Source of the DNA: a virus
Length of the DNA: 64,000 nucleotides
Reading direction: 5' to 3' (one strand)
Virus record (IMG/VR): IMGVR_UViG_3300020057_001232
Coordinates: 54,062 to 118,061 of that record
The translations under genes were made by a program, and so were the position numbers. The notes beneath the pieces were generated by a model that saw only the letters and a list, made by a program, of their open reading frames with translations, did no database searches and had not been told where the DNA came from. The number at the start of each line of letters is the position of its first letter. Position 1 is the first letter of the stretch. Shown in pieces: positions 2,904 to 60,123 of this stretch.

Positions 2904-3906
2904 CCGCAGCGGCAACGTCAGGACTTTGCCACTTCTTGACGCTGCCTTTGACCCAAACAAGTCGCAGCTCTTTTCGCCCCTCGCCACAATACCGCCAACC
3001 TAAATGGGCAGCGGAAGACCAACTATCGTCTTGATAGTTTTTGTCTTTTAGCCAGTTGTAACCGATGAGCATGATCTTAGCTTGGCTGAGGTCTTTGTCT
3101 GCTCGTAGGATTTCCTTGCCGCTAGCAGATTTCAATCGAACTTCGTTTACGAACTCTCTGATATCAGGTTTGCCGCTGTGGAGATAAGCGACGGTGTTGA
3201 GCATGATAGGTACGTGGTAGACGTAGAAGTCTTGTCCTACGATTGTCTTCTCTTCGGGGTGGTCAACCAAGAACTCCATCTTCTTGTAGCCTTTGCCTTT
3301 GAAGGCGTCCGACAAACGGATCTCTTTGTCTTTAGGCACCGTTTTAAACGTGTAACAGCGGTTGTAGTTTTTGTCGATCCAAGCAAAGAAGATTACGCTG
3401 TCGTCGGGTGTGGCGTTAGGGTAGCCGCCTTTGACACGGTGATGAGCAGGGATCTTGTTGAAAGGTCCGATGTAATACCAAAAGCTGTTTAACTCGTCTC
3501 CGTCATCGTCTTTGATGTAGGAAGGCAATTGCACGAAGCCGCTCGCGAACTCCGGCATGTCGGCAAAGCGTAGCTTGTCGAGGCACACCTTCTTGAACTT
3601 CTCAAAGAAGCGGTCTTCGAAGAGGTGAACTTTTTCGTCGCCGTAAGCATCGTAGCAACAAAGCACGTTGGCGAAGAAAATGCCTACGTCAGTGAAGAAA
3701 AGTTTCCCAAACAACATCTCGATCATCATGACGAGCTGCGGTCTCTTCTCTTCCACCTCGTACTTGCCCGTTCTTACGTGATCTACAAGCTTCTTCGTCA
3801 AGTAGTTGACACACCCTTTTGACGGGACCAGATCCCGCATTAGCGATTTCCAGTCAGGCTCCCGCTGCTCTTTCAAGATCTCAGGCAAAAACTTAGTAAC
3901 CCGCAA
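2809..3906 (-). CDS. hypothetical protein
   Basis: 365-aa ORF, GGAGG RBS upstream of a TTG start. Confidence 0.65.
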   Translation of the reverse strand: MRVTKFLPEILKEQREPDWKSLMRDLVPSKGCVNYLTKKLVDHVRTGKYEVEEKRPQLVMMIEMLFGKLFFTDVGIFFANVLCCYDAYGDEKVHLFEDRFFEKFKKVCLDKLRFADMPEFASGFVQLPSYIKDDDGDELNSFWYYIGPFNKIPAHHRVKGGYPNATPDDSVIFFAWIDKNYNRCYTFKTVPKDKEIRLSDAFKGKGYKKMEFLVDHPEEKTIVGQDFYVYHVPIMLNTVAYLHSGKPDIREFVNEVRLKSASGKEILRADKDLSQAKIMLIGYNWLKDKNYQDDSWSSAAHLGWRYCGEGRKELRLVWVKGSVKKWQSPDVAAAVTSPDTHSTLPVEHYNTFQTSQDPTADTGRI

Positions 3907-10992: not shown

Positions 10993-13900
10993 TTACTTTC
11001 TTCCGCCCCTAGGTACGAACACGCCTAACACTCTGTTATTGGTCATTACGACATTGTGGGTAGATGAGTTACCTCCAGTGTACTGCCCACCTGAGCGAGA
11101 TCCACCAGCTAAAACCAAGCCTTTTCGTTGTTGCACACGGCGAATTTGAACTCCACCTTTGTACTCGAAGTTGGCTTTATATTTTTCATTCCAAAGGAAG
11201 GTAGCACCAAGAACCATGGCTCTGAAAAGGTCGTCGTGCCCATCCCCTTTTGTAATTTTAGTGCCGACTTCAGATACGGAAAGCATCTGCCAAAGAAGGT
11301 GCATGTAAGGTCTTTTGTAAAGCAACTCTTCGATGGGCTCCGGTCTGTCGTCTACTTCGTCGAGTGGGATCTCCGGGGCTACGGTCTCGAACAAGCCTTG
11401 ATAAAGCTGCGCCCTGAAAGCAATGAAGTCTCTATAGGTAAGACTGTACTGCTGTGCGTCGATACCGAGCTTTCTGATGGCGTCGATCTGCGACTGACTC
11501 TGCCATTGGTCGTAGAGAACCAAGCGGACGTTGACCTTCTCGCAGATCGTAGCGACCATCTTTTGATACATACCGTCGAAGTCAACGACCTCGCCGTGGG
11601 TACGGTCGGGATAAAGAGCCCAAGCACCTGCCACTTGCACAACTTTGAAGTCGTCTTCTTTTAGTTTAAGAAGCGTCAAGGCGTAGCCGCAGTCCGACTT
11701 ACCCATATCAATAGATAGGCAGTAAGGGATCGACTTATCTCTATCAAGCTGTGAGGCATCAAAGAAAGGACCGATGATGCTCTTGTCGATCTTTACGTTC
11801 CAGTAAGGCTCCTCAAGCTTTGCCGACTTGAGAACCAAGTCTTCACTGTCAATAAAAGGATCGTCCGCAAACGGTGGGATAGAGCCATAGTCACGAGCGA
11901 ACGCTTTCGGATCTTTTCTCTTTTCGTTGTCTAAGAAGACGGGATCAATGTCAGGGTTGACCTCCCAACTTGCTTTGTGTGAAGTGACCTTCTTTGGGTC
12001 CGTCTTGCCGGTCTTGATAAGACGCATGATGTAGTCAGACTTCGACATCGTAGACGAAACTGCACAGAGGTAGCCCGTAGGCACGTTGTAGTCACCTTTC
12101 ACAAAGAGCTTGGCTGCTTTGTTACGGATGGTAGCAGCAGACTTTTCGTAGGCGATGTAGGTTTCTTTGGCGTTAGCTCTTTTGGCATCTTCACCACCGC
12201 CGAACCAACCGATTTCGTCGATACAAGAAAAGATACCTGTACGACCACGGGACGTATCTAGGGCAGCTCCTTGGACGTAACCGGAGATGCCTTTGTGAAA
12301 GTAGGAGAACTCCTCCGTCAACCACTTGTAGACCTCAACGCCCTTTTTCTTAGCGTAGAAGTCGAGCAAATCGTGGTACTGCGAAAACCAGTTGGAAGTC
12401 TCTATAGCACGGCAGAACTGCATCCAATTTGATTCTTTAGCCTGCTTCAAAGTGATAGCAATGAAACGCATGTAGAGCTGCTGACCTCGAAGCTGCTCGA
12501 AGTAGCCTGCGGGGTCAGGAAGCTTGAGGTAACGGTGAAGAACGTAGGAGCCAATCATGCCTCCTGCTACAGCCGACTTACCAGAGTTATGGTGTAGGAA
12601 ACCGTCCCCCGTGTAAACGTTCGTGCCTGGAACGTGGATGTCCATCATCTCTTCAATGGGACCGTCCTTGATGACCTTTATCTTTACGGGGAAGTAACCT
12701 TCGTCTATCAACTTCTTCAGCTTTTCAGGGGCGTTTTTGTAGGTGGTCGTCTGAGTCCCCGCAACGGCACCTAACGGAAGTGAGAAGTAGGGACGCCCCT
12801 TTATTCCTTTAGCTTTATCAAGTGTCTTTTTTTTCTGCTCGGAAGCTAAATGTACGTTCTCTTGGAAAATTCGAACAGAATTTGAATTTTTAGTTGAGAT
12901 GTTGAAGGCAACGCCTTTTTCATCGGGATCGTAATTTTTTAAGTAAGTATTAGCTTTTGCAAAACCGTTTAGTCTCATCGTACTACATCTAGTAACGATA
13001 CCTAAATTTAAAAGTAAAATACGAACTTGCTCAGCGAGTGTTTTGGAAACTGTAGTGTAGTAGACCTTTACCTTTTGACGCCCGTTGGGCATCGTCTCAG
13101 CATGGACTCCTCCATCGCCGTCGAAGAGACCTGCAAGAAACTCGCAGACGATTTCTTTAGGGGAGCGAAGGATGAAGTCTGGAACAATCTTGTCGTGGGA
13201 AGTCTCAGGTTTTAGTCCAATCCAATTTAGCCACTCCATTACGGCAACACCATTCAATGTCCAACATTTATAAAATGGGACCGTCGCACATTCCCTGTAC
13301 TCCTCAAGCTTAGGCTCCTCACCGAACACTGCCAGGCAGCACCTTTTGATATCTGCATCAATATCAGGATTGCTAGACACAATCCGTAAGTTGTACTTTC
13401 TGGTGTACTGACCATCAGAGACTAGATATCCAACCAGTCTTGCCAGCTCGGGCGTTACCTCCGTTGGGAAGCAGAAGTCTTTTGCTTGCTGTCCGTGTTC
13501 TAATTTATCTCGGCGAAAAGCCCCCAACTGGAAGCGGCTCTCTGCCCACATGTTTGCGGAATACAGAAGTACAACGTCGCCGACCTTGCAATCTTTCATG
13601 AGCTTGTGCTCAATCTCACAGTCTGTATTAAGTGTCGGCACGATATGGCTTTGCTTGGCACCCGACATGATCCAGTTGTAGTCTGTGGTAAAGCGGAGCG
13701 ATTCCTTCTTGCCGACATATATTTTCTCAGCAACAGTTCCATGTGTTAATTCATCGCCGACCTCTACCTTGTTAAATTCAATAATTCCCCTATTTTTCGT
13801 ATATATTCTAGTATGTTGGGAAACACACCTCATCCCCCACAGAAGATCCACTTCGTCCGGCATATACCAAAAATTGTCGTTGTAGTGATCTAAGCGTGTC

Positions 13901-14220
13901 GTTTTGCACTTTGGGCAGCGACCGTCATCGAGAAGCTGAATGCGGCTTAAAATTTCATCCGACTTTAGATCGGCAGTGAAGTCTTTACTGTAAAATTCCC
14001 AATCTGAGCAGTGCGGGCAAACGTCTCCGAAGAGACGAAGCATACTCTGAAGCTGAATTGGGTATACCGTTTTGGTATCTAGGAAGTCAGAGTCCATACA
14101 CCAACTGACGATATTCTTAGCCCAAGGCAGGTCTCTGTCGTCAAATTCAGTAACGGCACCAGGATCGAAGCCAGCCTTGATGGCGTCTTCGATCATTTTC
14201 GAGGGATTAAAGTCGGTCAT
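10993..14220 (-). CDS. terL: terminase large subunit (intein-containing)
   Basis: Walker A reconstituted as GMR|SGKS; Walker B CIDEIG; RNase H-like nuclease (SIDMG, YDQWQS, HDDL). Confidence 0.88.
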   Translation of the reverse strand: MTDFNPSKMIEDAIKAGFDPGAVTEFDDRDLPWAKNIVSWCMDSDFLDTKTVYPIQLQSMLRLFGDVCPHCSDWEFYSKDFTADLKSDEILSRIQLLDDGRCPKCKTTRLDHYNDNFWYMPDEVDLLWGMRCVSQHTRIYTKNRGIIEFNKVEVGDELTHGTVAEKIYVGKKESLRFTTDYNWIMSGAKQSHIVPTLNTDCEIEHKLMKDCKVGDVVLLYSANMWAESRFQLGAFRRDKLEHGQQAKDFCFPTEVTPELARLVGYLVSDGQYTRKYNLRIVSSNPDIDADIKRCCLAVFGEEPKLEEYRECATVPFYKCWTLNGVAVMEWLNWIGLKPETSHDKIVPDFILRSPKEIVCEFLAGLFDGDGGVHAETMPNGRQKVKVYYTTVSKTLAEQVRILLLNLGIVTRCSTMRLNGFAKANTYLKNYDPDEKGVAFNISTKNSNSVRIFQENVHLASEQKKKTLDKAKGIKGRPYFSLPLGAVAGTQTTTYKNAPEKLKKLIDEGYFPVKIKVIKDGPIEEMMDIHVPGTNVYTGDGFLHHNSGKSAVAGGMIGSYVLHRYLKLPDPAGYFEQLRGQQLYMRFIAITLKQAKESNWMQFCRAIETSNWFSQYHDLLDFYAKKKGVEVYKWLTEEFSYFHKGISGYVQGAALDTSRGRTGIFSCIDEIGWFGGGEDAKRANAKETYIAYEKSAATIRNKAAKLFVKGDYNVPTGYLCAVSSTMSKSDYIMRLIKTGKTDPKKVTSHKASWEVNPDIDPVFLDNEKRKDPKAFARDYGSIPPFADDPFIDSEDLVLKSAKLEEPYWNVKIDKSIIGPFFDASQLDRDKSIPYCLSIDMGKSDCGYALTLLKLKEDDFKVVQVAGAWALYPDRTHGEVVDFDGMYQKMVATICEKVNVRLVLYDQWQSQSQIDAIRKLGIDAQQYSLTYRDFIAFRAQLYQGLFETVAPEIPLDEVDDRPEPIEELLYKRPYMHLLWQMLSVSEVGTKITKGDGHDDLFRAMVLGATFLWNEKYKANFEYKGGVQIRRVQQRKGLVLAGGSRSGGQYTGGNSSTHNVVMTNNRVLGVFVPRGGRK
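12586..13827 (-). mobile_element. intein with LAGLIDADG homing endonuclease, 414 aa
   Basis: Begins CVSQHT, ends GFLHHN followed by Ser; LVGYLVSDG and FLAGLFDGDG motifs. Confidence 0.93.
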
Positions 14221-26931: not shown

Positions 26932-27992
26932 AATATAAGGTAAGTGCAAAATACAAGCTCGTTGTGGCAAACCGTAAGCAGCGCTATTTCGAAATTCTTC
27001 GTGACGTTCCTTATCCTGACGCACACAAACAGCAAGTTGTAGACCACATCATGAAGCTCTTCGACAGAGAAGACCGCATTATGTGGTACCTGCGTAGGGC
27101 TCGTGCGGCTGACCTTGCTGAAATTTCCTTGAAAGAGCCAGCACACTTCGAACAGTTTAAAGCCGCTCTCGGCGGTGACGAAGCATTACAGAAGCTTCTC
27201 GACGGCAAAGACAAAGCTAAGCAACGTCTCGCCCGTATTGTGAATGCCCCAATCGACACACCAAAATGGACGGAGCGTGTTGAAGCCCTCTACGAAGAGG
27301 GGCAAGCTCTTGCTCGCCACGTCAGCGAGCTTACTAAGATCTTAGCCGAAGCCAAAGAGCTTCAAATGAAAACGGTTCTCGACTACAACTTCCCCGCCGA
27401 ACAAAGCGCAGATGACCTCATTGCACAGCTCAAATCTCGCTATGCTGCGGAGAAAGCACAGCTACCCGACCCACGGCATCTCCGTCCTGTAGACGCCGAA
27501 AAGCCAGTCATTGAGTTCCCAAACGGCTGGGCATGGGTACTTGTAGATAAAGAAACATGTAAACGTGAAGCGGGAGCCATGGAGCACTGCGGCAACTCTA
27601 ATTACAAAGAGGGTGACCGCATTTACTCCCTTAGGGAGCCCATCGAACACGGCAAGAAAAAGGAGCGTCTTTGGAAGCCGCACCTCACCTTCATCATAAA
27701 CAACGGTAACGTTACCGAGATGAAAGGTTTTAGAAATTCTAAACCTAAAAAAGAACTACACAGCTACATCTTAAAGCTTCTAGAAAGCCCTGTCGTAAAA
27801 CATGTCGTCGGTGGTGGCTACAAGCCGCAGAATAACTTCTCTTTGCATGATCTTGACGACGCATTGCTAAAAGCCTTGCTTCGTAAAAAACCTGATATTG
27901 ACAAAGAGAACGACCAGCACGATCATGACGAATATGAAAACGACTTTGATGATAATGAGAACTATGACGATGAGGACGAAGACGACAGATGA
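26928..27992 (+). CDS. PcfJ-like domain putative internal virion protein
   Basis: 'EAGAMEHCGN...IYSLR...PHLT...EMKGFRNSKP'; acidic tail; leader MKYKVSAKYKLVVA. Confidence 0.65.
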   Translation: MKYKVSAKYKLVVANRKQRYFEILRDVPYPDAHKQQVVDHIMKLFDREDRIMWYLRRARAADLAEISLKEPAHFEQFKAALGGDEALQKLLDGKDKAKQRLARIVNAPIDTPKWTERVEALYEEGQALARHVSELTKILAEAKELQMKTVLDYNFPAEQSADDLIAQLKSRYAAEKAQLPDPRHLRPVDAEKPVIEFPNGWAWVLVDKETCKREAGAMEHCGNSNYKEGDRIYSLREPIEHGKKKERLWKPHLTFIINNGNVTEMKGFRNSKPKKELHSYILKLLESPVVKHVVGGGYKPQNNFSLHDLDDALLKALLRKKPDIDKENDQHDHDEYENDFDDNENYDDEDEDDR

Positions 27993-47636: not shown

Positions 47637-47819
47637 ATGCCCGCAGCTCTAAAACCCACTTTGGTCGTCTTCATTGACATCCTCCCCACGGCTAAAGCAG
47701 GGGGTTTTACGCTGAGTTTCGATAAAGATGGCGATCACACCGTCTTCGAAGTCTCTTACAAGAGAAAAGGACATCGGCAGCAATATGCTTTCGTCGTAGG
47801 AGATGCCAATGGCGGATGA
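47637..47819 (+). CDS. small protein carrying an in-frame 48-bp insertion
   Basis: AAGGAG RBS; removing 47674-47721 restores VFNKDG. Confidence 0.55.
   Translation: MPAALKPTLVVFIDILPTAKAGGFTLSFDKDGDHTVFEVSYKRKGHRQQYAFVVGDANGG
47674..47721 (-). mobile_element. 48-bp IS200/IS605-type palindromic mini-element
   Basis: Minus strand TTAT|CGAAACTCAGCGTAAAACCCCCTGCTTTAGCCGTGGGGAGGATGTCAA; identical to 57415-57462. Confidence 0.85.
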
Positions 47820-48132
47820 CACACCGATCAAAGTCACCGTAAGCGGAGAGACCGTCTACAAGGCGGTCAAGAACTTCCTACTTCATGACGACGATTTCCG
47901 TAAGAAGGTTGATGCCGTCTTGGCGAAACTTGAAGTCGAAGAAACCCTTTCGGCGTGTGCGGAGAGGGCAGTCGAAAAGCATCTGTCTGCTAAATTCATG
48001 TACGGCGTCGGCATTGACCGTATGTTGGAGAAGGTGGCAAGCAAGCTCATCGCCGAGAAGTTAGATGAGATCTTGAACAGTAAGATCCAAGAAGCACTGA
48101 AGAACAGGAAATTCGTCGTTTTAGACCCTTGA
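47803..48132 (+). CDS. hypothetical protein
   Basis: AGGAG RBS. Confidence 0.65.
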   Translation: MPMADDTPIKVTVSGETVYKAVKNFLLHDDDFRKKVDAVLAKLEVEETLSACAERAVEKHLSAKFMYGVGIDRMLEKVASKLIAEKLDEILNSKIQEALKNRKFVVLDP

Positions 48133-48166
48133 CTCCAAAAGCTTCTTCTGAGATTATACAACAGCT

Positions 48167-48290
48167 ATGAAAAACTATTTAAACATTTCCATGTGGGTCA
48201 TTAGCTTCGGTTTCACCGAGGTCTTAGCCTGCTTGCGAAATCGACAAGCCCTCTGACTCGGGAAACCGAATCAGAGGGCTTTAAGTTTAT
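48167..48290 (+). promoter_or_regulatory. leader-peptide transcription attenuator upstream of tRNA pair
   Basis: 29-codon ORF 48167-48256; terminator AAGCCCTCTGA..TCAGAGGGCTT; alternative pairing TTCGGTTTC.CCGAG.TC with GACTCGGGAAACCGAA. Confidence 0.7.
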
Positions 48291-48293
48291 TAT

Positions 48294-48370
48294 GGCACCG
48301 TGGGTGAGAGGCTTAGCCACCTGACTCATATTCAGGATTTACGACAGTTCGAGTCTGTCCGGTGCTACCA
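48294..48370 (+). tRNA. tRNA anticodon CAT (elongator Met or Ile2)
   Basis: GGCACCG/CGGTGCT acceptor, CCTGA-CTCATAT-TCAGG, GACAG-TTCGAGT-CTGTC, ACCA end. Confidence 0.9.
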
Positions 48371-48380
48371 TTAGGTTCAT

Positions 48381-48455
48381 CCGCGTGTAGCTCATCGGTA
48401 GAGCACTGCCCTGATAAGGCAGGGGTAGAAAGTTCGATTCTTTCCACGCGGACCA
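48381..48455 (+). tRNA. tRNA-Ile(GAT)
   Basis: CCGCGTG/CACGCGG, CTGCC-CTGATAA-GGCAG, GAAAG-TTCGATT-CTTTC, ACCA end. Confidence 0.93.
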
Positions 48456-48473
48456 CTTTAAAGAAAGAAAAGT

Positions 48474-48716
48474 ATGCAATTCAAACACTACTGTGAAGCT
48501 CCCCATAGACCGCTAGATGCGCTCGCGCCTAGCATCTTTCTTGCTGGTGGCATAACGGGTTGCCCTCAGTGGCAATCCACAGTCACAAATAAGTTGCTGT
48601 CTGAGGATGCTAGCGGAGGCGTGCTCTACAATCCTCGTCGTGCTGATTTTCCAATGAGTGACCCTACAGCAGCTCAAGCTCAGTTCGACGGTTTTCGTCT
48701 TCCCAAGATTAACTGA
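48474..48716 (+). pseudogene. 3'-truncated nucleoside 2-deoxyribosyltransferase-like gene
   Basis: SIFLAGGITGCPQWQ...LYNPRR.DF then ends at 80 aa. Confidence 0.6.
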
Positions 48717-48730
48717 AAAATGGGGTTATC

Positions 48731-49636
48731 TTGAGGTTTGTAAATAAAATTCATGCGGCTCTATCTCGCGTCCTTTACCATAAAACAAATGAAACTAATG
48801 CGATTAAAATTCTAAAAGACCGTAAATTTAGACTCTCCACCTGGTTAGGTGGGTCGGGTGTAGATAAAGGGTCTGAGAAGCTTTGGTTTTTATCTACTTC
48901 TACACGTCCCGGAGCCTTCAAGAAGGGTAGTTCTGGAGTAGTTTTTGTTTTAGATGGAAGCAGTATTAATAAAGACTATGAGGGCGATCCATTTGACTAC
49001 TGGGGGGAGGCTTACCATAAAGCCTCTGGTGGTGACACGGATGAAGCAGAGGAGAGAGTTTACTCAGATAAGCCGCTTATACCTATTCACTATATAACTG
49101 AGATACATGCGGACTGGTATATCGGTAATAAAGGTTATGAAGCTCATGCTTATAAAAGACACCGAGACCTTACCTTACTTGCTAAAAAACTAAATATTCC
49201 AATTTACTGGTACGAGAGCCATAAAAGTTTAGACTCCCTAAATAAACAAGAAGCTAAGAAGTTTTCGGACTTCCCCAAGGGACCAGAACTAGAACCTGAA
49301 GAAAGAGACTACCAAACTGGAAGGTCTAACCGTGAGGGTAGCGTTTCCAAGTATTTCTATGAGAAATGGAAAGCACTACTAAGCATCGAACCCGCTAAGT
49401 CTAAAAAAGACCTACCGTTTAAGAACATGTATCAATACCTCTCTAGCTATAGTGACGGTCATACCGGGTTTAAATCCGATATCCACAATGCCTCTAAAGG
49501 TGGAGAAGCTGGTGAGCTGAAATACATATATAAATTACAAAAACAAATGGAACGTGTGGGAGCTAAAGACTTCAAAGAGTTCTACTGGAAGATGATAGAT
49601 AAACTATATAACAATCTTTTAAAAGAACCTGGTTGA
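48731..49636 (+). CDS. putative virion protein with ADP-ribosyltransferase-like motifs
   Basis: LYHKT, FLSTS, EAEE; leader MRFVNKIHAA; visibly more AT-rich than neighbours. Confidence 0.55.
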   Translation: MRFVNKIHAALSRVLYHKTNETNAIKILKDRKFRLSTWLGGSGVDKGSEKLWFLSTSTRPGAFKKGSSGVVFVLDGSSINKDYEGDPFDYWGEAYHKASGGDTDEAEERVYSDKPLIPIHYITEIHADWYIGNKGYEAHAYKRHRDLTLLAKKLNIPIYWYESHKSLDSLNKQEAKKFSDFPKGPELEPEERDYQTGRSNREGSVSKYFYEKWKALLSIEPAKSKKDLPFKNMYQYLSSYSDGHTGFKSDIHNASKGGEAGELKYIYKLQKQMERVGAKDFKEFYWKMIDKLYNNLLKEPG

Positions 49637-49671: not shown

Positions 49672-50358
49672 TCACGCCTGCGTTGTAGGCATAAGCCAAA
49701 GCTTGTTGCCGTAGAAGAGAGCGTCACTGACTGCTGGAAACATAGCTAAGTAGCGCAGAGTCGTAATCGTACTGTGAGCAAAGCAACGCTTTAGCTCTTC
49801 TCTCTTGCGCTCTACGCTCACGCTCTCCTCAAGCTTTCTGACGATGTGCATGTTGTTGATGGCATCTTTCAACTCTTTGTCCATCTGGAAGTCCTTCGTG
49901 ATAGCAAACCTAATTGCACGCAAAACGCGCAAGGCATCTTCGTTCAGACGGTCATACGCAGAGCCTACAGCGCGTAGCGTGAGCATTCGAACGTCTTCAA
50001 GCCCGTTGTGGGGGTCAATCAAGTTGCCGTCAGCGTCTTCTGCCATAGCATTGACGGTGAAATCCCTACGACGAAGGTCGTCATAGAGAGTACCAGGCTC
50101 TACGGTGTCAGGGCGTCTGCCGTCTGTATAGTTGCTTTCTTTGCGGCAAAGTACGTAGTCGGCAGCATCGCCATCGTGAAGCTTTGCGCGCACCGTCAAA
50201 AATTGCGGTGAGGTCAAGAAGATTTTGCCACGCTCTGCGATCCAAGCGACCATAGCCTCAAAGGACGGCGCTTCTACGGCGTAGTCAAGGTCTTTCGGTT
50301 CAATGCCTAAAAGTCTGTCACGGACGCTGCCTCCGACGAGATAAGCTTGGATCGTCAT
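49672..50358 (-). CDS. cca: class II tRNA nucleotidyltransferase (CCA-adding/poly(A) polymerase family), short form
   Basis: VGGSVRD..DLDY, RRDFTVNAMA, EDALRVLRAIRF. Confidence 0.88.
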   Translation of the reverse strand: MTIQAYLVGGSVRDRLLGIEPKDLDYAVEAPSFEAMVAWIAERGKIFLTSPQFLTVRAKLHDGDAADYVLCRKESNYTDGRRPDTVEPGTLYDDLRRRDFTVNAMAEDADGNLIDPHNGLEDVRMLTLRAVGSAYDRLNEDALRVLRAIRFAITKDFQMDKELKDAINNMHIVRKLEESVSVERKREELKRCFAHSTITTLRYLAMFPAVSDALFYGNKLWLMPTTQA

Positions 50359-50474
50359 AAATGCCCTCACAAAAGTTAGCAACGACTACCTTCGCATGAA
50401 TTTTTTGCGGGAAGAAGCGTGGAGTTGCTTGACGCTCACATTTCCTTGTACACTGATCTCAGTCAATCCTTTGA

Positions 50475-50551
50475 GGGTCTGTAGCTCAATTGGCTAGAGC
50501 GCCGCGTTTACATCGCGGAGGTTGTGAGATCGTGCCTCACCGGACCTACCA
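50475..50551 (+). tRNA. tRNA-Val(TAC)
   Basis: GGGTCTG/CGGACCT, CCGCG-TTTACAT-CGCGG, atypical T-loop ATCGTGC, ACCA end. Confidence 0.88.
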
Positions 50552-53229: not shown

Positions 53230-55524
53230 TCATGCCGAACAGGCGACACAATCTTCTGGGTTATCTAAGGAACATGCCACTTCTTCGACCGGCGTCATTT
53301 CGATTTGCTTCGTAGTGACCTTCTGAGCCTGCATCGACGGCTTCGAGCGGAGGTAGTACATCATCGTCTTCAAGCCTTTGGAATGGCTATAGGCGTGCAT
53401 GGATGCGACCTGAGCTACCGTAGGATTAGCAAGGAAAAGGTTCATCGACTGCGACTGGTCAATGAACGCACCACGATCCGCCGCCATGTCGATGACGGTC
53501 TTCTGCGAAATCTCCCACACGGTTTTATAGATCTCTCTCACTTCGATAGGAATCTCGGGGATGACTTGGACGCTGCCACCACCCGAAATGATCTTATCAC
53601 GCATACTAGAGTTCCATAGACCTAGCTCCATCAATTTCTTTACGAGGTGCTTATTGACGACGATGTACTCACCAGAGAGCGTCTCACGCTTGTAGATGTT
53701 TGAGGTCTGAGCTTCAAACGCTTCGATGTTGTCGAAGATTTGAGCAGTGGACGCCGTAGGCATAGGTGCGACTAGAAGCGAGTTACGCAAACCGTGCTTC
53801 TTAATTTTCTCTTTCAGACCTGCCCAATCGTACTCAGCACTAGGCTCAACGTCCCACATGTCGAACTGCAAAATGCCTTCTGACGCAGGCGACCCTTTGA
53901 AAGTTGAGTAAGCGCCGTCTTTTTCAGCAATCTCACACGACGCCTCAAGTGCTGCGAAGTAAAGCGCCTCAAAGATGTCTCGGTTGAGCTTGCGAGCTTC
54001 CGGCGATTCAAACGGCATGTCTAACATGAAGAAGACATCTGCTAGACCTTGCACGCCGATACCAATCGGACGGTGTTTGTTGTTGGAGTTAGAAGTCTTC
54101 TTGTTGGGGTAGAAGTTTTTGTCGATGACCCTATTTAGAAACTTAACTGTGGTCTTTACCACCTTCTTCAAACCTTCGAAGTCAAATGTTCCATTAACTA
54201 CATGCTTAGGTAGACACTGTGAAGCGAGGGTGCAAACCGCAGTCTCGTCGTCGTTACTGACCTCAACAATCTCCGTACAAAGGTTTGAACTTTCGATGAT
54301 GCCGATGTTTTTCTGATTGGACTTCTTATTGATGGAGTCTTTGTTGAGCATGTAAGGCACACCGGTTTCAATCTGCGCTTGGACGATCTGCGAGAAAAGG
54401 TCTCTAGCTAAGACTTGTTTCTTGTAGCGGCTTTCCGCTTCGTACTTGCAATACAGCTCTTCAAACTCTTTGCCGTAGACTTTGTTGAGTCCTGGGCATT
54501 CGTGCGGACACATCAAAGACCACACACCGTCGTTTTTGACTCTTTCCATGAAGAGGTCAGAAACCCACAAAGCTAAAAAGAGGTCACGGCAGCGGATCTT
54601 GTCTTCGCCTGTGTTGTATTTCAATTTGATGAAGTCTTCGATGTCGGCGTGCCACGTCTCTAAGTAGACCGCCACTGATCCCTTGCGCTTGCCACCTTGG
54701 TTGACGTAGCGAGCGGTCTCGTTCCACAGACGGAGCATGGGGACTAAGCCCTCGGAGTGACCGTTGGTGCCTGCTATGCGGCTTCCTCTTGCACGAATGT
54801 TATGGACGTGGATGCCAATGCCTCCGGCGTACTTACTGATCTGAGCGGTCTCCCAAAGTGAGCTGTAGATACCCTCAAGGCTGTCGTCACTGCGGATAGC
54901 CAAAAGGTAGCAGGAGGCAAGCTGAGGACGGATCGTACCCGCATTGAAAAGCGTCGGCGTGGCGTGGGTGTATTTCCCCGTAGAGATCAAGTCGTAGAGT
55001 TCAAGCACGTCTTCGATGCTGTCGCCACCGAGCGCAAGAGCCACCCGCATCCAAAGATGCTGCGGACGCTCAACGATCTTACTATTGGCTTTCAGGAGGT
55101 AGCTGCGCTCCAAAGTCTTGAAGCCGAAGTAGGTAAAGTCAAAGTCCCGCTCGTACTTGATGTGCTTCTCGATGTCTTTACCGTGATGCTTCAAGATCTT
55201 GATGAAGTCATTTCCGATTACGCCAGCTTTGCTAAGATCCTTCATCGACTGATAAAAGTTCTTGGTGTTCTTGTGGAGGTTGGACACCGCAATGCGGGAA
55301 GCAAGCCGAGAATAGTCAGGGTGCTCCGTCGTAAGCATAGCGGCGGTCTCGGCGAGAAGCGTGTCGATCTCCGACGAAGTGATCTTATCGTAAAGACCTG
55401 ACACGACTTTTTGGGCAATGACTGCTGAGTCTACGGCGAGGTCTTTGGCGACCGCACGGACTCGAAACAGAACTTTGTCAAATTGAACATCTTCGAGAGC
55501 GCCTGAACGCTTCACGACTTGCAT
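53230..55524 (-). CDS. nrdA: ribonucleotide reductase class Ia alpha subunit with ATP cone
   Basis: ATPTLFNAG, SNLCTEI, APMPTASTAQ, C-terminal CxxCSA. Confidence 0.97.
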   Translation of the reverse strand: MQVVKRSGALEDVQFDKVLFRVRAVAKDLAVDSAVIAQKVVSGLYDKITSSEIDTLLAETAAMLTTEHPDYSRLASRIAVSNLHKNTKNFYQSMKDLSKAGVIGNDFIKILKHHGKDIEKHIKYERDFDFTYFGFKTLERSYLLKANSKIVERPQHLWMRVALALGGDSIEDVLELYDLISTGKYTHATPTLFNAGTIRPQLASCYLLAIRSDDSLEGIYSSLWETAQISKYAGGIGIHVHNIRARGSRIAGTNGHSEGLVPMLRLWNETARYVNQGGKRKGSVAVYLETWHADIEDFIKLKYNTGEDKIRCRDLFLALWVSDLFMERVKNDGVWSLMCPHECPGLNKVYGKEFEELYCKYEAESRYKKQVLARDLFSQIVQAQIETGVPYMLNKDSINKKSNQKNIGIIESSNLCTEIVEVSNDDETAVCTLASQCLPKHVVNGTFDFEGLKKVVKTTVKFLNRVIDKNFYPNKKTSNSNNKHRPIGIGVQGLADVFFMLDMPFESPEARKLNRDIFEALYFAALEASCEIAEKDGAYSTFKGSPASEGILQFDMWDVEPSAEYDWAGLKEKIKKHGLRNSLLVAPMPTASTAQIFDNIEAFEAQTSNIYKRETLSGEYIVVNKHLVKKLMELGLWNSSMRDKIISGGGSVQVIPEIPIEVREIYKTVWEISQKTVIDMAADRGAFIDQSQSMNLFLANPTVAQVASMHAYSHSKGLKTMMYYLRSKPSMQAQKVTTKQIEMTPVEEVACSLDNPEDCVACSA

Positions 55525-57462: not shown

Positions 57463-57537
57463 ATAAAGATTGCAGTGGAATAGGACTGCTATAAAATCTT
57501 TAGGAAGTGGGGAAGGAGTTAGAAGCAGGAAAAGGGT

Positions 57538-57686
57538 GTAGAACGGTTCAAGTAATGTACGCAAAATTCTTTGCCAGAAAGTATGAGTTTCTGTGCCCTA
57601 CCATTGGGCGAGTTCCCCACAGTGAGGGGAGCCCAGGAATCGAACCTAGATTTGCTTGTATGCGTTCGTCGGGGGAACCGATCTAC
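57538..57686 (-). ncRNA. Y RNA-like structured RNA #3 with circularly permuted tRNA domain (anticodon CAT)
   Basis: GTAGATCGGTTC-CCCC-GACGAACGCA-TACAAGCA; T-arm CTAGG-TTCGATT-CCTGG; GCTCCCC-loop-GGGGAAC; GCCC/GGGC D-arm; CAGAAA-CTCATAC-TTTCTG; then TGCGTACATT-ACTT-GAACCGTTCTAC. Confidence 0.82.
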
Positions 57687-58869: not shown

Positions 58870-60123
58870 TTGCTAGAAATTCGACTACAAGTCCCCCATC
58901 GTCCAAAGCTATTGGTAAAAGGGAGTTTGTCGTTGGGTGTTCAAAATTTCAGCAGCAGCGGCGAGGCTTCGGTTGAGCTTTGGGGAGCCAAAGCTTTTCG
59001 TCTTTTTGAAGCTCGACACTTCTTCTCACACCCCGGCTTCGTCATCACATCGGACGAAAGCCTCACCGTCTTTAAAGAACTAGGCATTGATGCTTTATTA
59101 AGCAGCTTAGATCCCGAAAACCTCGACGAGCTGCTTTTGGTAAGTAGTAAAATCAAGGATCTCGTGGCTGGTTATCCTTTCCCCTCAAGGCTTTCAGAGG
59201 AACTCTCTGGGATTTCCCAGAACAAACGTATTGAATACGCCGTTCGGTCCTCGGCAGTGCTTGAAGATACGCCTCGGCTGAGCTTCGCCGGGCAGTACGA
59301 CAGCTACTTGCATGTCCACCGCAGGGAGCTTGCAGACTACGTTAAGCTCGTTTGGGCATCGCTTTACAGCGCCCGTGCGATCAGCTACCGGCATCACAAC
59401 AACTTGCCTAAGAGTGGGCATTCGATTGCGGTTTTGATCCAAGAGATGTTTGACGGTGTGAGTGGTGTTCTTTTTACGGTGAACCCCGACACGGCTGCTA
59501 ACGAGCTTTTTATCCAAGCTGCTTGGAACGGTGTCGTCAACGGCAAGAGTAATGCTTCGACCTTTATAGTCAAAGATGTCAGCGAGATCAGGGAGCACGC
59601 TCCTTACTTGACTAAGACGGACGTTCAAAGCTTGTACGTCTACGCTCATTGTCTTATGAAGAAATTCGGTCCTGAGCTTGACATCGAGTGGGTAAAAAGT
59701 GAACAGCTCGGCATCATCCCCCTTCAAGTCAGACCTCTTACCAAAGTTAGCTCGGGCACGGTTTATATCCCTTCCAACGGTCAGATCCCTATTTTGATCG
59801 GAGCTGGGATTGGAATGGGGATAACAAGGGGTGAAGTGTACAAACCTGAATCACCATTTGACAAAAACTTTAAACCGGGCTTCATTCTAGTGGCTCGTGA
59901 CACTAGCCCTGATTGGGAACCTCTTATGAGGTTGGCGTCTGCCATCGTAACGGACCACGGCTGCCGGACCTCACACGCAGCTCTCGTTGCGGCTGAGATG
60001 GCTCTGCCTGCGGTTGTGGGTACCAGCGATGCTACTACGTCGCTAGCGAACGGTCAGGTAATTAGTTTGGAAATTTCCGAATCGTTAGGATTCGTTTTTG
60101 GAGGACGGACACACCATGGGTAG
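58870..60123 (+). CDS. PEP synthase/dikinase-like protein (ATP-grasp and phospho-His domains only)
   Basis: AVRSSA..ED...SFAGQY, DIEW, LQVRP, TDHGCRTSHAA; no C-terminal pyruvate-binding barrel. Confidence 0.85.
   Translation: MLEIRLQVPHRPKLLVKGSLSLGVQNFSSSGEASVELWGAKAFRLFEARHFFSHPGFVITSDESLTVFKELGIDALLSSLDPENLDELLLVSSKIKDLVAGYPFPSRLSEELSGISQNKRIEYAVRSSAVLEDTPRLSFAGQYDSYLHVHRRELADYVKLVWASLYSARAISYRHHNNLPKSGHSIAVLIQEMFDGVSGVLFTVNPDTAANELFIQAAWNGVVNGKSNASTFIVKDVSEIREHAPYLTKTDVQSLYVYAHCLMKKFGPELDIEWVKSEQLGIIPLQVRPLTKVSSGTVYIPSNGQIPILIGAGIGMGITRGEVYKPESPFDKNFKPGFILVARDTSPDWEPLMRLASAIVTDHGCRTSHAALVAAEMALPAVVGTSDATTSLANGQVISLEISESLGFVFGGRTHHG

Follow-up and report, generated by a model that had tools for sequence, protein, structure and literature searches.

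Organization of the tRNA locus

The sequence analysed here is a stretch of 64,000 nucleotides (hereafter, the window; positions 54,062 to 118,061 of the IMG/VR virus record IMGVR_UViG_3300020057_001232). It makes up the final 64 kb of a 118-kb viral record, which is classified in IMG/VR as a provirus and has an estimated CheckV completeness of ~49%. Within a long array of plus-strand genes, a 341-nt gap (48133-48473) holds two tRNA genes and the strongly folded leader that precedes them. The leader is the subject of this study. An initial annotation, made from the sequence of the window, had interpreted it as a leader-peptide attenuator that switches on the phage tRNA genes when ribosomes stall for lack of host tRNA-Ile or tRNA-Met. 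Our analysis supports much of the RNA anatomy behind that proposal and not its translational sensor. Coordinates are those of the window, and the features lie on the plus strand unless stated otherwise.

Both tRNA genes were identified by ARAGORN and Rfam, and both encode the CCA end. The first gene (48294-48370; 49.1 bits) has the anticodon CAU and may encode either tRNA-Met, reading AUG, or tRNA-Ile2, reading AUA. Comparison of this tRNA with E. coli gave no match, and comparison with Vibrio phage tRNAs annotated as Ile or Thr gave matches of 28-34 nt only. The second gene (48381-48455; 68.8 bits) encodes tRNA-Ile(GAU). The predicted leader RNA of ~126-130 nt (48164-48293) is composed of an A/U-rich 5' end, two consecutive hairpins, termed hp1 and hp2, and a tail that runs into tRNA(CAU). 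Its first part (48164-48184) is unpaired in the minimum free energy (MFE) fold.

The only promoter-like site near the tRNAs is a sigma-70-like candidate at 48129-48157 (TTGACT, a 17-nt spacer and TG-n-GATTAT), which overlaps the stop codon of the upstream gene. It has nine of 12 matches plus the TG extension; sites of such quality occur 7 times per 10 kb, compared to 8.7 in shuffled sequences. Four sites in the 118 kb combine TTGAC with an acceptable -10 hexamer, and of these just the site at 48129 carries the TG extension. No recurrent phage-specific promoter motif spanning this site was found. With GATTAT taken as the -10 element, transcription would start at ~48164, approximately 3 nt upstream of the AUG of a 29-codon open reading frame (ORF). 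A separate promoter of the tRNAs downstream of hp2, which the initial annotation had set against its own proposal, was rejected: the promoter scan called none in the 12 nt available between hp2 and tRNA(CAU). Transcription of the tRNAs must therefore traverse hp2.

Other promoter-like elements of the window were inspected as well. A second module composed of a promoter, ATG AAA and a hairpin at 27898 was discarded, being out of frame within a coding region. The sequence TTGACG was observed ~46 and 64 nt upstream of the tRNA starts of a tRNA-Val gene and a tRNA-Glu-like gene (50429-50551 and 24-160, respectively), in both cases with no canonical -10 hexamer at 16-18 nt. The distance of the 48129 site to its tRNA is 165 nt, versus ~46 nt between TTGACG and tRNA-Val.

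Mutually exclusive helices in the leader

The region 48160-48295 folds with an MFE of -53.6 kcal/mol (z -6.2), and none of 200 shuffled sequences was as stable. Three helices can be formed by consecutive segments of the leader. Hairpin hp1 (helix 1:2; 48185-48241, -20.9 kcal/mol) has a self-complementary apex at 48204-48222. Hairpin hp2 (helix 3:4; 48246-48281, -26.7 kcal/mol) is terminator-like and consists of 11 base pairs, a 1x1 mismatch, four more base pairs and a GAAA loop. The alternative is a long hairpin (helix 2:3; 48206-48270, approximately -31 kcal/mol) that would serve as an antiterminator, in which 48206-48214 pairs with 48262-48270 and 48216-48220 with 48257-48261, around an apex at 48231-48249. 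The underlying complementarity joins 48206-48223 to 48255-48271 in a duplex of -22.7 kcal/mol with 14-16 pairs and two bulges, in agreement with the earlier observation that ORF codons 14-19 are complementary to the interior of the hairpin.

At equilibrium, the full-length leader is predicted to adopt the fold with hp1 and hp2, with P(terminator)=0.97; the full-length fold constrained to the antiterminator is 12 kcal/mol worse (-37.1 vs -49.3 kcal/mol). In nascent transcripts ending at 48266-48274, the MFE fold contains helix 2:3, with a probability of 0.84-0.94, and the terminator takes over once position 48278 emerges. The findpath barriers are 12-16 kcal/mol for the passage from hp1 to the 2:3 fold and 21.5 kcal/mol for conversion of the latter into the terminator fold. 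In silico, the outcome is set by whichever helix forms first, and this is the anatomy of an attenuator. Folding of the alternatives agrees with the initial annotation that antiterminator and terminator are mutually exclusive, the choice between them depending on prior formation of hp1.

The pairing between segments 2 and 3 is uncommon. The duplex between leader and hairpin (-31.0) was matched by four of 1000 dinucleotide shuffles and by 15 of 1478 natural windows. By a stricter measure, the gain, which deducts the cost of melting the upstream structure, the value of -9.2 was matched in 12 of 500 shuffles and 33 of 1388 natural windows. The same gain is the largest among the 13 terminator-like hairpins of the genome, the other 12 hairpins having values from 0.0 to -6.9. 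We consider this rarity as moderate evidence, weakened because the site was chosen by eye from 64 kb of sequence.

The second hairpin as a possible terminator

Among the 13 terminator-like hairpins of the genome, hp2 combines the strongest stem (a G-C core of -24.2) with the lowest T-tail score, 2.67 compared to 3.10-4.49 for the others, as calculated by a formula after d'Aubenton-Carafa and colleagues. The T tract that separates hp2 from the tRNA (48282-48293) is interrupted and reads TTTAAGTTTATTAT, including two Ts of the stem end; the tail itself is just TTT followed by AAG, whereas the other terminators of this phage have 4-8 contiguous Ts. An automated terminator scan of the window did not include hp2 in its list. 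Judging from the sequence, hp2 would be a partial terminator at best.

The leader open reading frame

The 29-codon ORF (48167-48256) reads MKNYLNISMWVISFGFTEVLACLRNRQAL. As the initial annotation had described, it runs into the strong hairpin at 48246-48281 ahead of the tRNAs, hp2 being 12 nt away from tRNA(CAU). The ORF has no Shine-Dalgarno (SD) sequence. Its SD duplex of -2.7, scored with an assumed anti-SD string, is to be compared to a median of -5.4 for the genes and of -2.1 for random sites. The phage genes do use SD sequences, as duplexes of -4 kcal/mol or lower precede 60% of 125 crude gene calls and 19.7% of 1000 random sites. With approximately 3 nt before the AUG on the predicted transcript, the start would be neither leadered nor cleanly leaderless. 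The length of the ORF is ordinary: a complete ATG-initiated ORF of at least 29 codons was found in 331 of 5000 shuffles (6.6%) and in 97 of 1466 natural windows of 161 nt. This ORF is probably fortuitous. The possibility of a type I toxin-like peptide was also considered and dismissed upon inspection by eye, as the hydrophobic stretch is broken by T and E.

The codon content does not single out isoleucine or methionine. The two ATG and two ATT codons that the initial annotation counted within the first 12 codons are present: codons 1 (the start codon) and 9 are ATG, and codons 7 and 12 are ATT. The enrichment is not significant: Ile and Met codons (two ATT and one internal ATG) account for three of 28 codons (P=0.30), and none of them are tandem or adjacent. 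A lower value, P=0.035, is obtained only within codons 2-12, a window defined post hoc. The Asn codon AAC occurs twice within the same stretch as the Ile and Met codons. The ORF has no ATA codon.

The effect of a ribosome on the leader was modelled using an assumed footprint from -15 to +14 relative to the A-site. A ribosome at codon 7 or 9 blocks the outer stem of hp1, and transcripts ending at 48266-48274 then favour the antiterminator helix, with a probability of 0.92-0.94. With the ribosome stalled at codon 12, the antiterminator has its 5' strand masked, and the terminator forms with a probability of 0.93. The UGA stop codon (48254-48256) lies inside the 5' arm of hp2, and a ribosome positioned there (48239-48268 masked) reduces P(terminator) to 0.00. 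In classical attenuation, the terminating ribosome must leave the terminator free. Given the position of the UGA codon, a normally terminating ribosome would also prevent formation of the terminator, and therefore the system would have no OFF state during normal decoding. In such a model any translation of the ORF would yield read-through, and the geometry would be that of ribosome occlusion, as in the pyrBI leader. The proposed induction of the phage tRNAs by ribosome stalling upon Ile or Met tRNA depletion is poorly supported, given the lack of an SD sequence, of codon enrichment and of an OFF state.

Search for related leaders

Megablast and blastn searches against phage records retrieved only a 65-nt match within tRNA-Ile in two Aeromonas phages, which have a differing tRNA layout. 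The neighbouring genes were then used as anchors. For the 109-aa protein encoded upstream, no relatives were found among 52 pattern matches in viral contigs. The 301-aa protein encoded downstream had no relatives in viral contigs; it was found in 14 metagenome loci, none of which contains a tRNA or a match to any of the 13 other neighbouring proteins. Relatives of the tRNA nucleotidyltransferase (CCA-adding enzyme) encoded nearby were collected from viral contigs, and 80 of 153 were kept. Genes for tRNAs are present in ten of these 80 loci, including two (L089 and L090) in which Ile(GAT) is followed by Met(CAT) within an array of 12 tRNAs. The order observed here, a CAU tRNA followed by Ile(GAU), was found in none of the 80 loci. 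Neither synteny nor similarity to the leader was detected among them, the best blastn match being 19 nt (E 0.23). Exact patterns derived from the hairpin and the tRNA had no matches in viral contigs or genome contigs. An Rfam search with 48125-48300 at E-values up to 10 returned no leader family, T-box included, and only spurious hairpin matches.

The leader (48192-48277) and the 5' half of tRNA(CAU) (48294-48343) contain collinear short motifs, located in the D-loop region of the tRNA and in the 5' strand of its anticodon stem, and a 13-nt repeat is shared between leader and tRNA(CAU). The leader may be a decayed partial copy of this tRNA. A local alignment was not significant (83 of 1000 shuffles). 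A chained alignment was matched by six and two of 500 shuffles under two cheap-gap settings and by 61 of 500 under a third setting, and the number of shared k-mers was matched in 69-111 of 1000 shuffles. We did not adopt this idea because it is post hoc and parameter-dependent.

Interpretation and alternative explanations

We suggest, with about as much confidence as doubt, that the leader is untranslated and structured, that hp2 is a leaky terminator, an operon boundary and later a protective 3' hairpin, and that the ORF is fortuitous. The region 48133-48293 would be the highly structured 5' leader of a phage RNA spanning tRNA(CAU), tRNA-Ile(GAU) and probably later genes. This RNA would originate at the site at 48129-48157, as read-through from the upstream operon, or in both ways. 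Its folding would be co-transcriptional, first into hp1 and then into hp2. Hairpin hp2 would act as a leaky intrinsic terminator, because its stem is very stable and its U tract is short and interrupted, and a fixed fraction of polymerases would read through into the tRNAs. Cleavage by RNase P at the 5' end of the tRNA would leave hp2 as a protective hairpin at the 3' end of the upstream RNA. The complementarity between segments 2 and 3 would be incidental.

Several observations speak against this suggestion. The complementarity that it treats as incidental exceeds that of 97.6-99.6% of controls (a rarity of 0.4-2.4%), and the alternative 2:3 fold is kinetically trapped, as expected of a designed switch. 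It would be unusual for a promoter to lead directly into a terminator if termination were unregulated and no small RNA (sRNA) produced, and the promoter call at 48129-48157 is not significant by itself. Finally, no relative with the leader was found in viral, genome or metagenome searches.

The first alternative is a translation-independent RNA switch, in which the state of a bistable leader is set by an RNA-binding antiterminator protein of phage or host origin, by pairing of a tRNA or sRNA with segment 1, or by polymerase speed. We regard such a switch as unlikely, and grant it this much because the 2:3 complementarity, with the largest gain of all 13 hairpins, is hard to dismiss. The high barriers in both directions would make an early folding choice persist, and the 126-nt leader, with its 165 nt from promoter-like site to tRNA, is long for a tRNA gene. 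The arrangement also fits the general scheme of terminator/antiterminator riboregulators as outlined in PMC5314783. On the other hand, the leader has no Rfam match, we can name neither a ligand nor a protein site for it, and relatives that could provide covariation were not found. The U tract is weak, and a rarity of 0.4-2.4% is modest for a site picked by eye from the 64-kb window.

Models that involve a ribosome are rather improbable even when the two forms discussed below, stalling and occlusion, are taken jointly. Slightly less credible is the combined model in which a bistable switch gates the phage tRNAs, hp1 leading to termination and helix 2:3 to read-through, with the choice tipped by a ribosome on the near-leaderless ORF.

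An independent sRNA gene of ~125 nt, extending from the promoter at 48129-48157 to hp2, with an A/U-rich seed at its 5' end and with the tRNAs made only from the read-through fraction, appears improbable. The promoter-like site, 20 unpaired nucleotides at the 5' end, an internal hairpin and a strong 3' hairpin are the usual layout of an sRNA. Against it, the U tail is short and interrupted, the promoter call is insignificant alone, no Rfam match was obtained, and no target was identified.

The classical leader-peptide attenuator is quite improbable. In this model, ribosomes stalled at codons 7, 9 or 12 upon depletion of tRNA-Ile or tRNA-Met would block hp1, segment 48206-48223 would pair with the interior of hp2, and read-through would follow. 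The model draws on the existence of three mutually exclusive helices, on the location of codons 7 and 9 in segment 1 (where the ribosome mask favours the antiterminator), and on the barriers. In the absence of a ribosome, hp1 forms first and is 12-16 kcal/mol away from the antiterminator fold, which, once formed, is separated by ~21.5 kcal/mol from the terminator fold. The second ORF codon is AAA, and no promoter was found downstream of hp2. These points are outweighed by the ORF itself, with no SD sequence, an AUG only ~3 nt from the predicted start, an ordinary length and no Ile or Met enrichment, as well as two AAC codons in the sensing range. Moreover, a stall at codon 12 gives the terminator, an unstalled ribosome at the stop codon blocks termination as well, and the antiterminator helix is favoured at intermediate transcript lengths with or without the ribosome mask. 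The U tract is weak, and the first regulated gene, tRNA(CAU), may be either Met or Ile2.

Least probable of all is an occlusion attenuator of the pyrBI type, in which synthesis of the tRNAs and downstream genes would require a ribosome translating the leader and closely following RNA polymerase. The stop codon in the 5' arm of hp2, the complete loss of the terminator under a ribosome placed there and the unpaired A/U-rich 5' end would suit it, but the ORF has no SD sequence and a near-leaderless start with ~3 extra nucleotides, direct inspection of the sequence showed no U-rich pause run ahead of the terminator, no relative with the leader was found in the searches, and phage tRNA synthesis would drop just when decoding is impaired, to no evident benefit.

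Genomic context

The gene upstream of the leader (47803-48132) is the last gene of the co-directional array and encodes a protein of 109 aa with no family assignment, the sole match of which among 5.8 billion proteins is the protein itself. Its TGA stop codon overlaps the -35-like hexamer. Downstream, an 80-aa ORF (48474-48716) begins 19 nt past tRNA-Ile; as there is no terminator between them, it is probably co-transcribed with the tRNAs. It encodes an N-terminal fragment of a nucleoside 2-deoxyribosyltransferase-like domain (PF15891; 25.6 bits, under the cut-off of 30) that matches positions 1-43 of the 105 in the family and ends with TGA, followed by an unrelated 301-aa ORF. Judging from its sequence, the 80-aa ORF looks like a truncated gene remnant beside the tRNAs.

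The 301-aa protein (48731-49636) belongs to no Pfam or PHROG family. Its ten metagenome homologues, with 44-58% identity, are found in unrelated gene contexts and have ~40 invariant residues in common, including an IH..K motif and several W and Y residues. A gene on the minus strand (49672-50382), 1.2 kb from the tRNAs, encodes the head domain of the CCA-adding enzyme; the closest homologues among phages, with no more than 49% identity, come from large phages of Microbacterium and Arthrobacter. Elsewhere in the genome, the only match of the CarD protein of the phage is the protein itself. A 1075-aa protein (10993-14220, minus strand) contains a LAGLIDADG domain and may carry an intein or a homing endonuclease insertion, and a 417-aa protein (58870-60123, plus strand) has PPDK_N and PEP-utilizer mobile domains.

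Two further tRNA calls were made by ARAGORN. A 'tRNA-Met(CAT)' at 57522-57620 on the minus strand is 99 nt long, far above the normal tRNA length. Upstream of the window in the same record (3115-3185), a tRNA with the anticodon CTA, labelled 'Pyl' and of the amber-suppressor type, raises the possibility that TAG is read through or recoded in part of the phage. The gene density within the window is normal-looking under code 11.

Comparison with known regulatory systems

Little work has addressed how phages regulate the tRNA genes they carry. A literature search found, in titles and the beginnings of abstracts, no description of leader-peptide attenuation or of a conditional terminator for phage tRNA genes. 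A conditional terminator in front of phage tRNAs, if true, would mean that phages sense the translation status or an attack on host tRNAs and respond to it, and a switch at this locus would couple the output of tRNA(CAU) and tRNA-Ile to the decoding state of the infected cell. The leader at 48164-48293 cannot carry this claim, as its RNA fold is suggestive and its translational sensor is not; its value is that of a testable candidate. The case also cautions that an ORF, a hairpin and complementarity between them are insufficient to claim an attenuator.

The mechanisms of trp-type and pyrBI-type attenuators and of T-boxes, the processing by RNase P and the U-tract requirements of terminators are textbook knowledge. 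The phage leader resembles the transcription attenuators of amino-acid operons (trpL, hisL and pheL type; cf. PMC3082878) in that it has a short ORF overlapping the first segment of a series of three exclusive helices, the last of which is a terminator-like hairpin ahead of the regulated genes. It differs from them by the lack of an SD sequence and of a run or enrichment of regulatory codons, by the weak U tract, by the stop codon in the 5' arm of the terminator rather than before or in segment 2, and by the regulated genes, which are tRNAs rather than biosynthetic enzymes. With the pyrBI leader it shares an ORF that enters the terminator hairpin, such that a translating ribosome would physically prevent termination. 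In contrast to pyrBI, translation start signals and an evident nucleotide-sensitive pause region are absent, and the logic of such control for tRNA genes is unclear.

T-boxes are likewise RNA leaders in which the choice between terminator and antiterminator is tied to tRNA biology. No T-box was matched in Rfam at E-values up to 10, and a specifier loop and a UGGN bulge were not found by eye. The targets of T-boxes are synthetase and amino-acid genes rather than tRNA genes. The terminator/antiterminator riboregulators predicted in 5' leaders by PASIFIC (PMC5314783, in outline) have in common with the phage leader two exclusive folds, one of them resembling an intrinsic terminator, upstream of the regulated genes. 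Unlike these, the phage leader has no identifiable sensor domain or ligand and no Rfam match.

A further system for comparison is the ordinary leaky intrinsic terminator or 3'-stabilizing hairpin at a junction of mRNA and tRNA processed by RNase P. A G+C-rich hairpin with a partial U tract, located directly upstream of co-transcribed tRNAs in a co-directional array, is what is observed at this locus. The phage leader departs from such junctions by the promoter-like site upstream of it and by a second hairpin that is unusually complementary to hp2.

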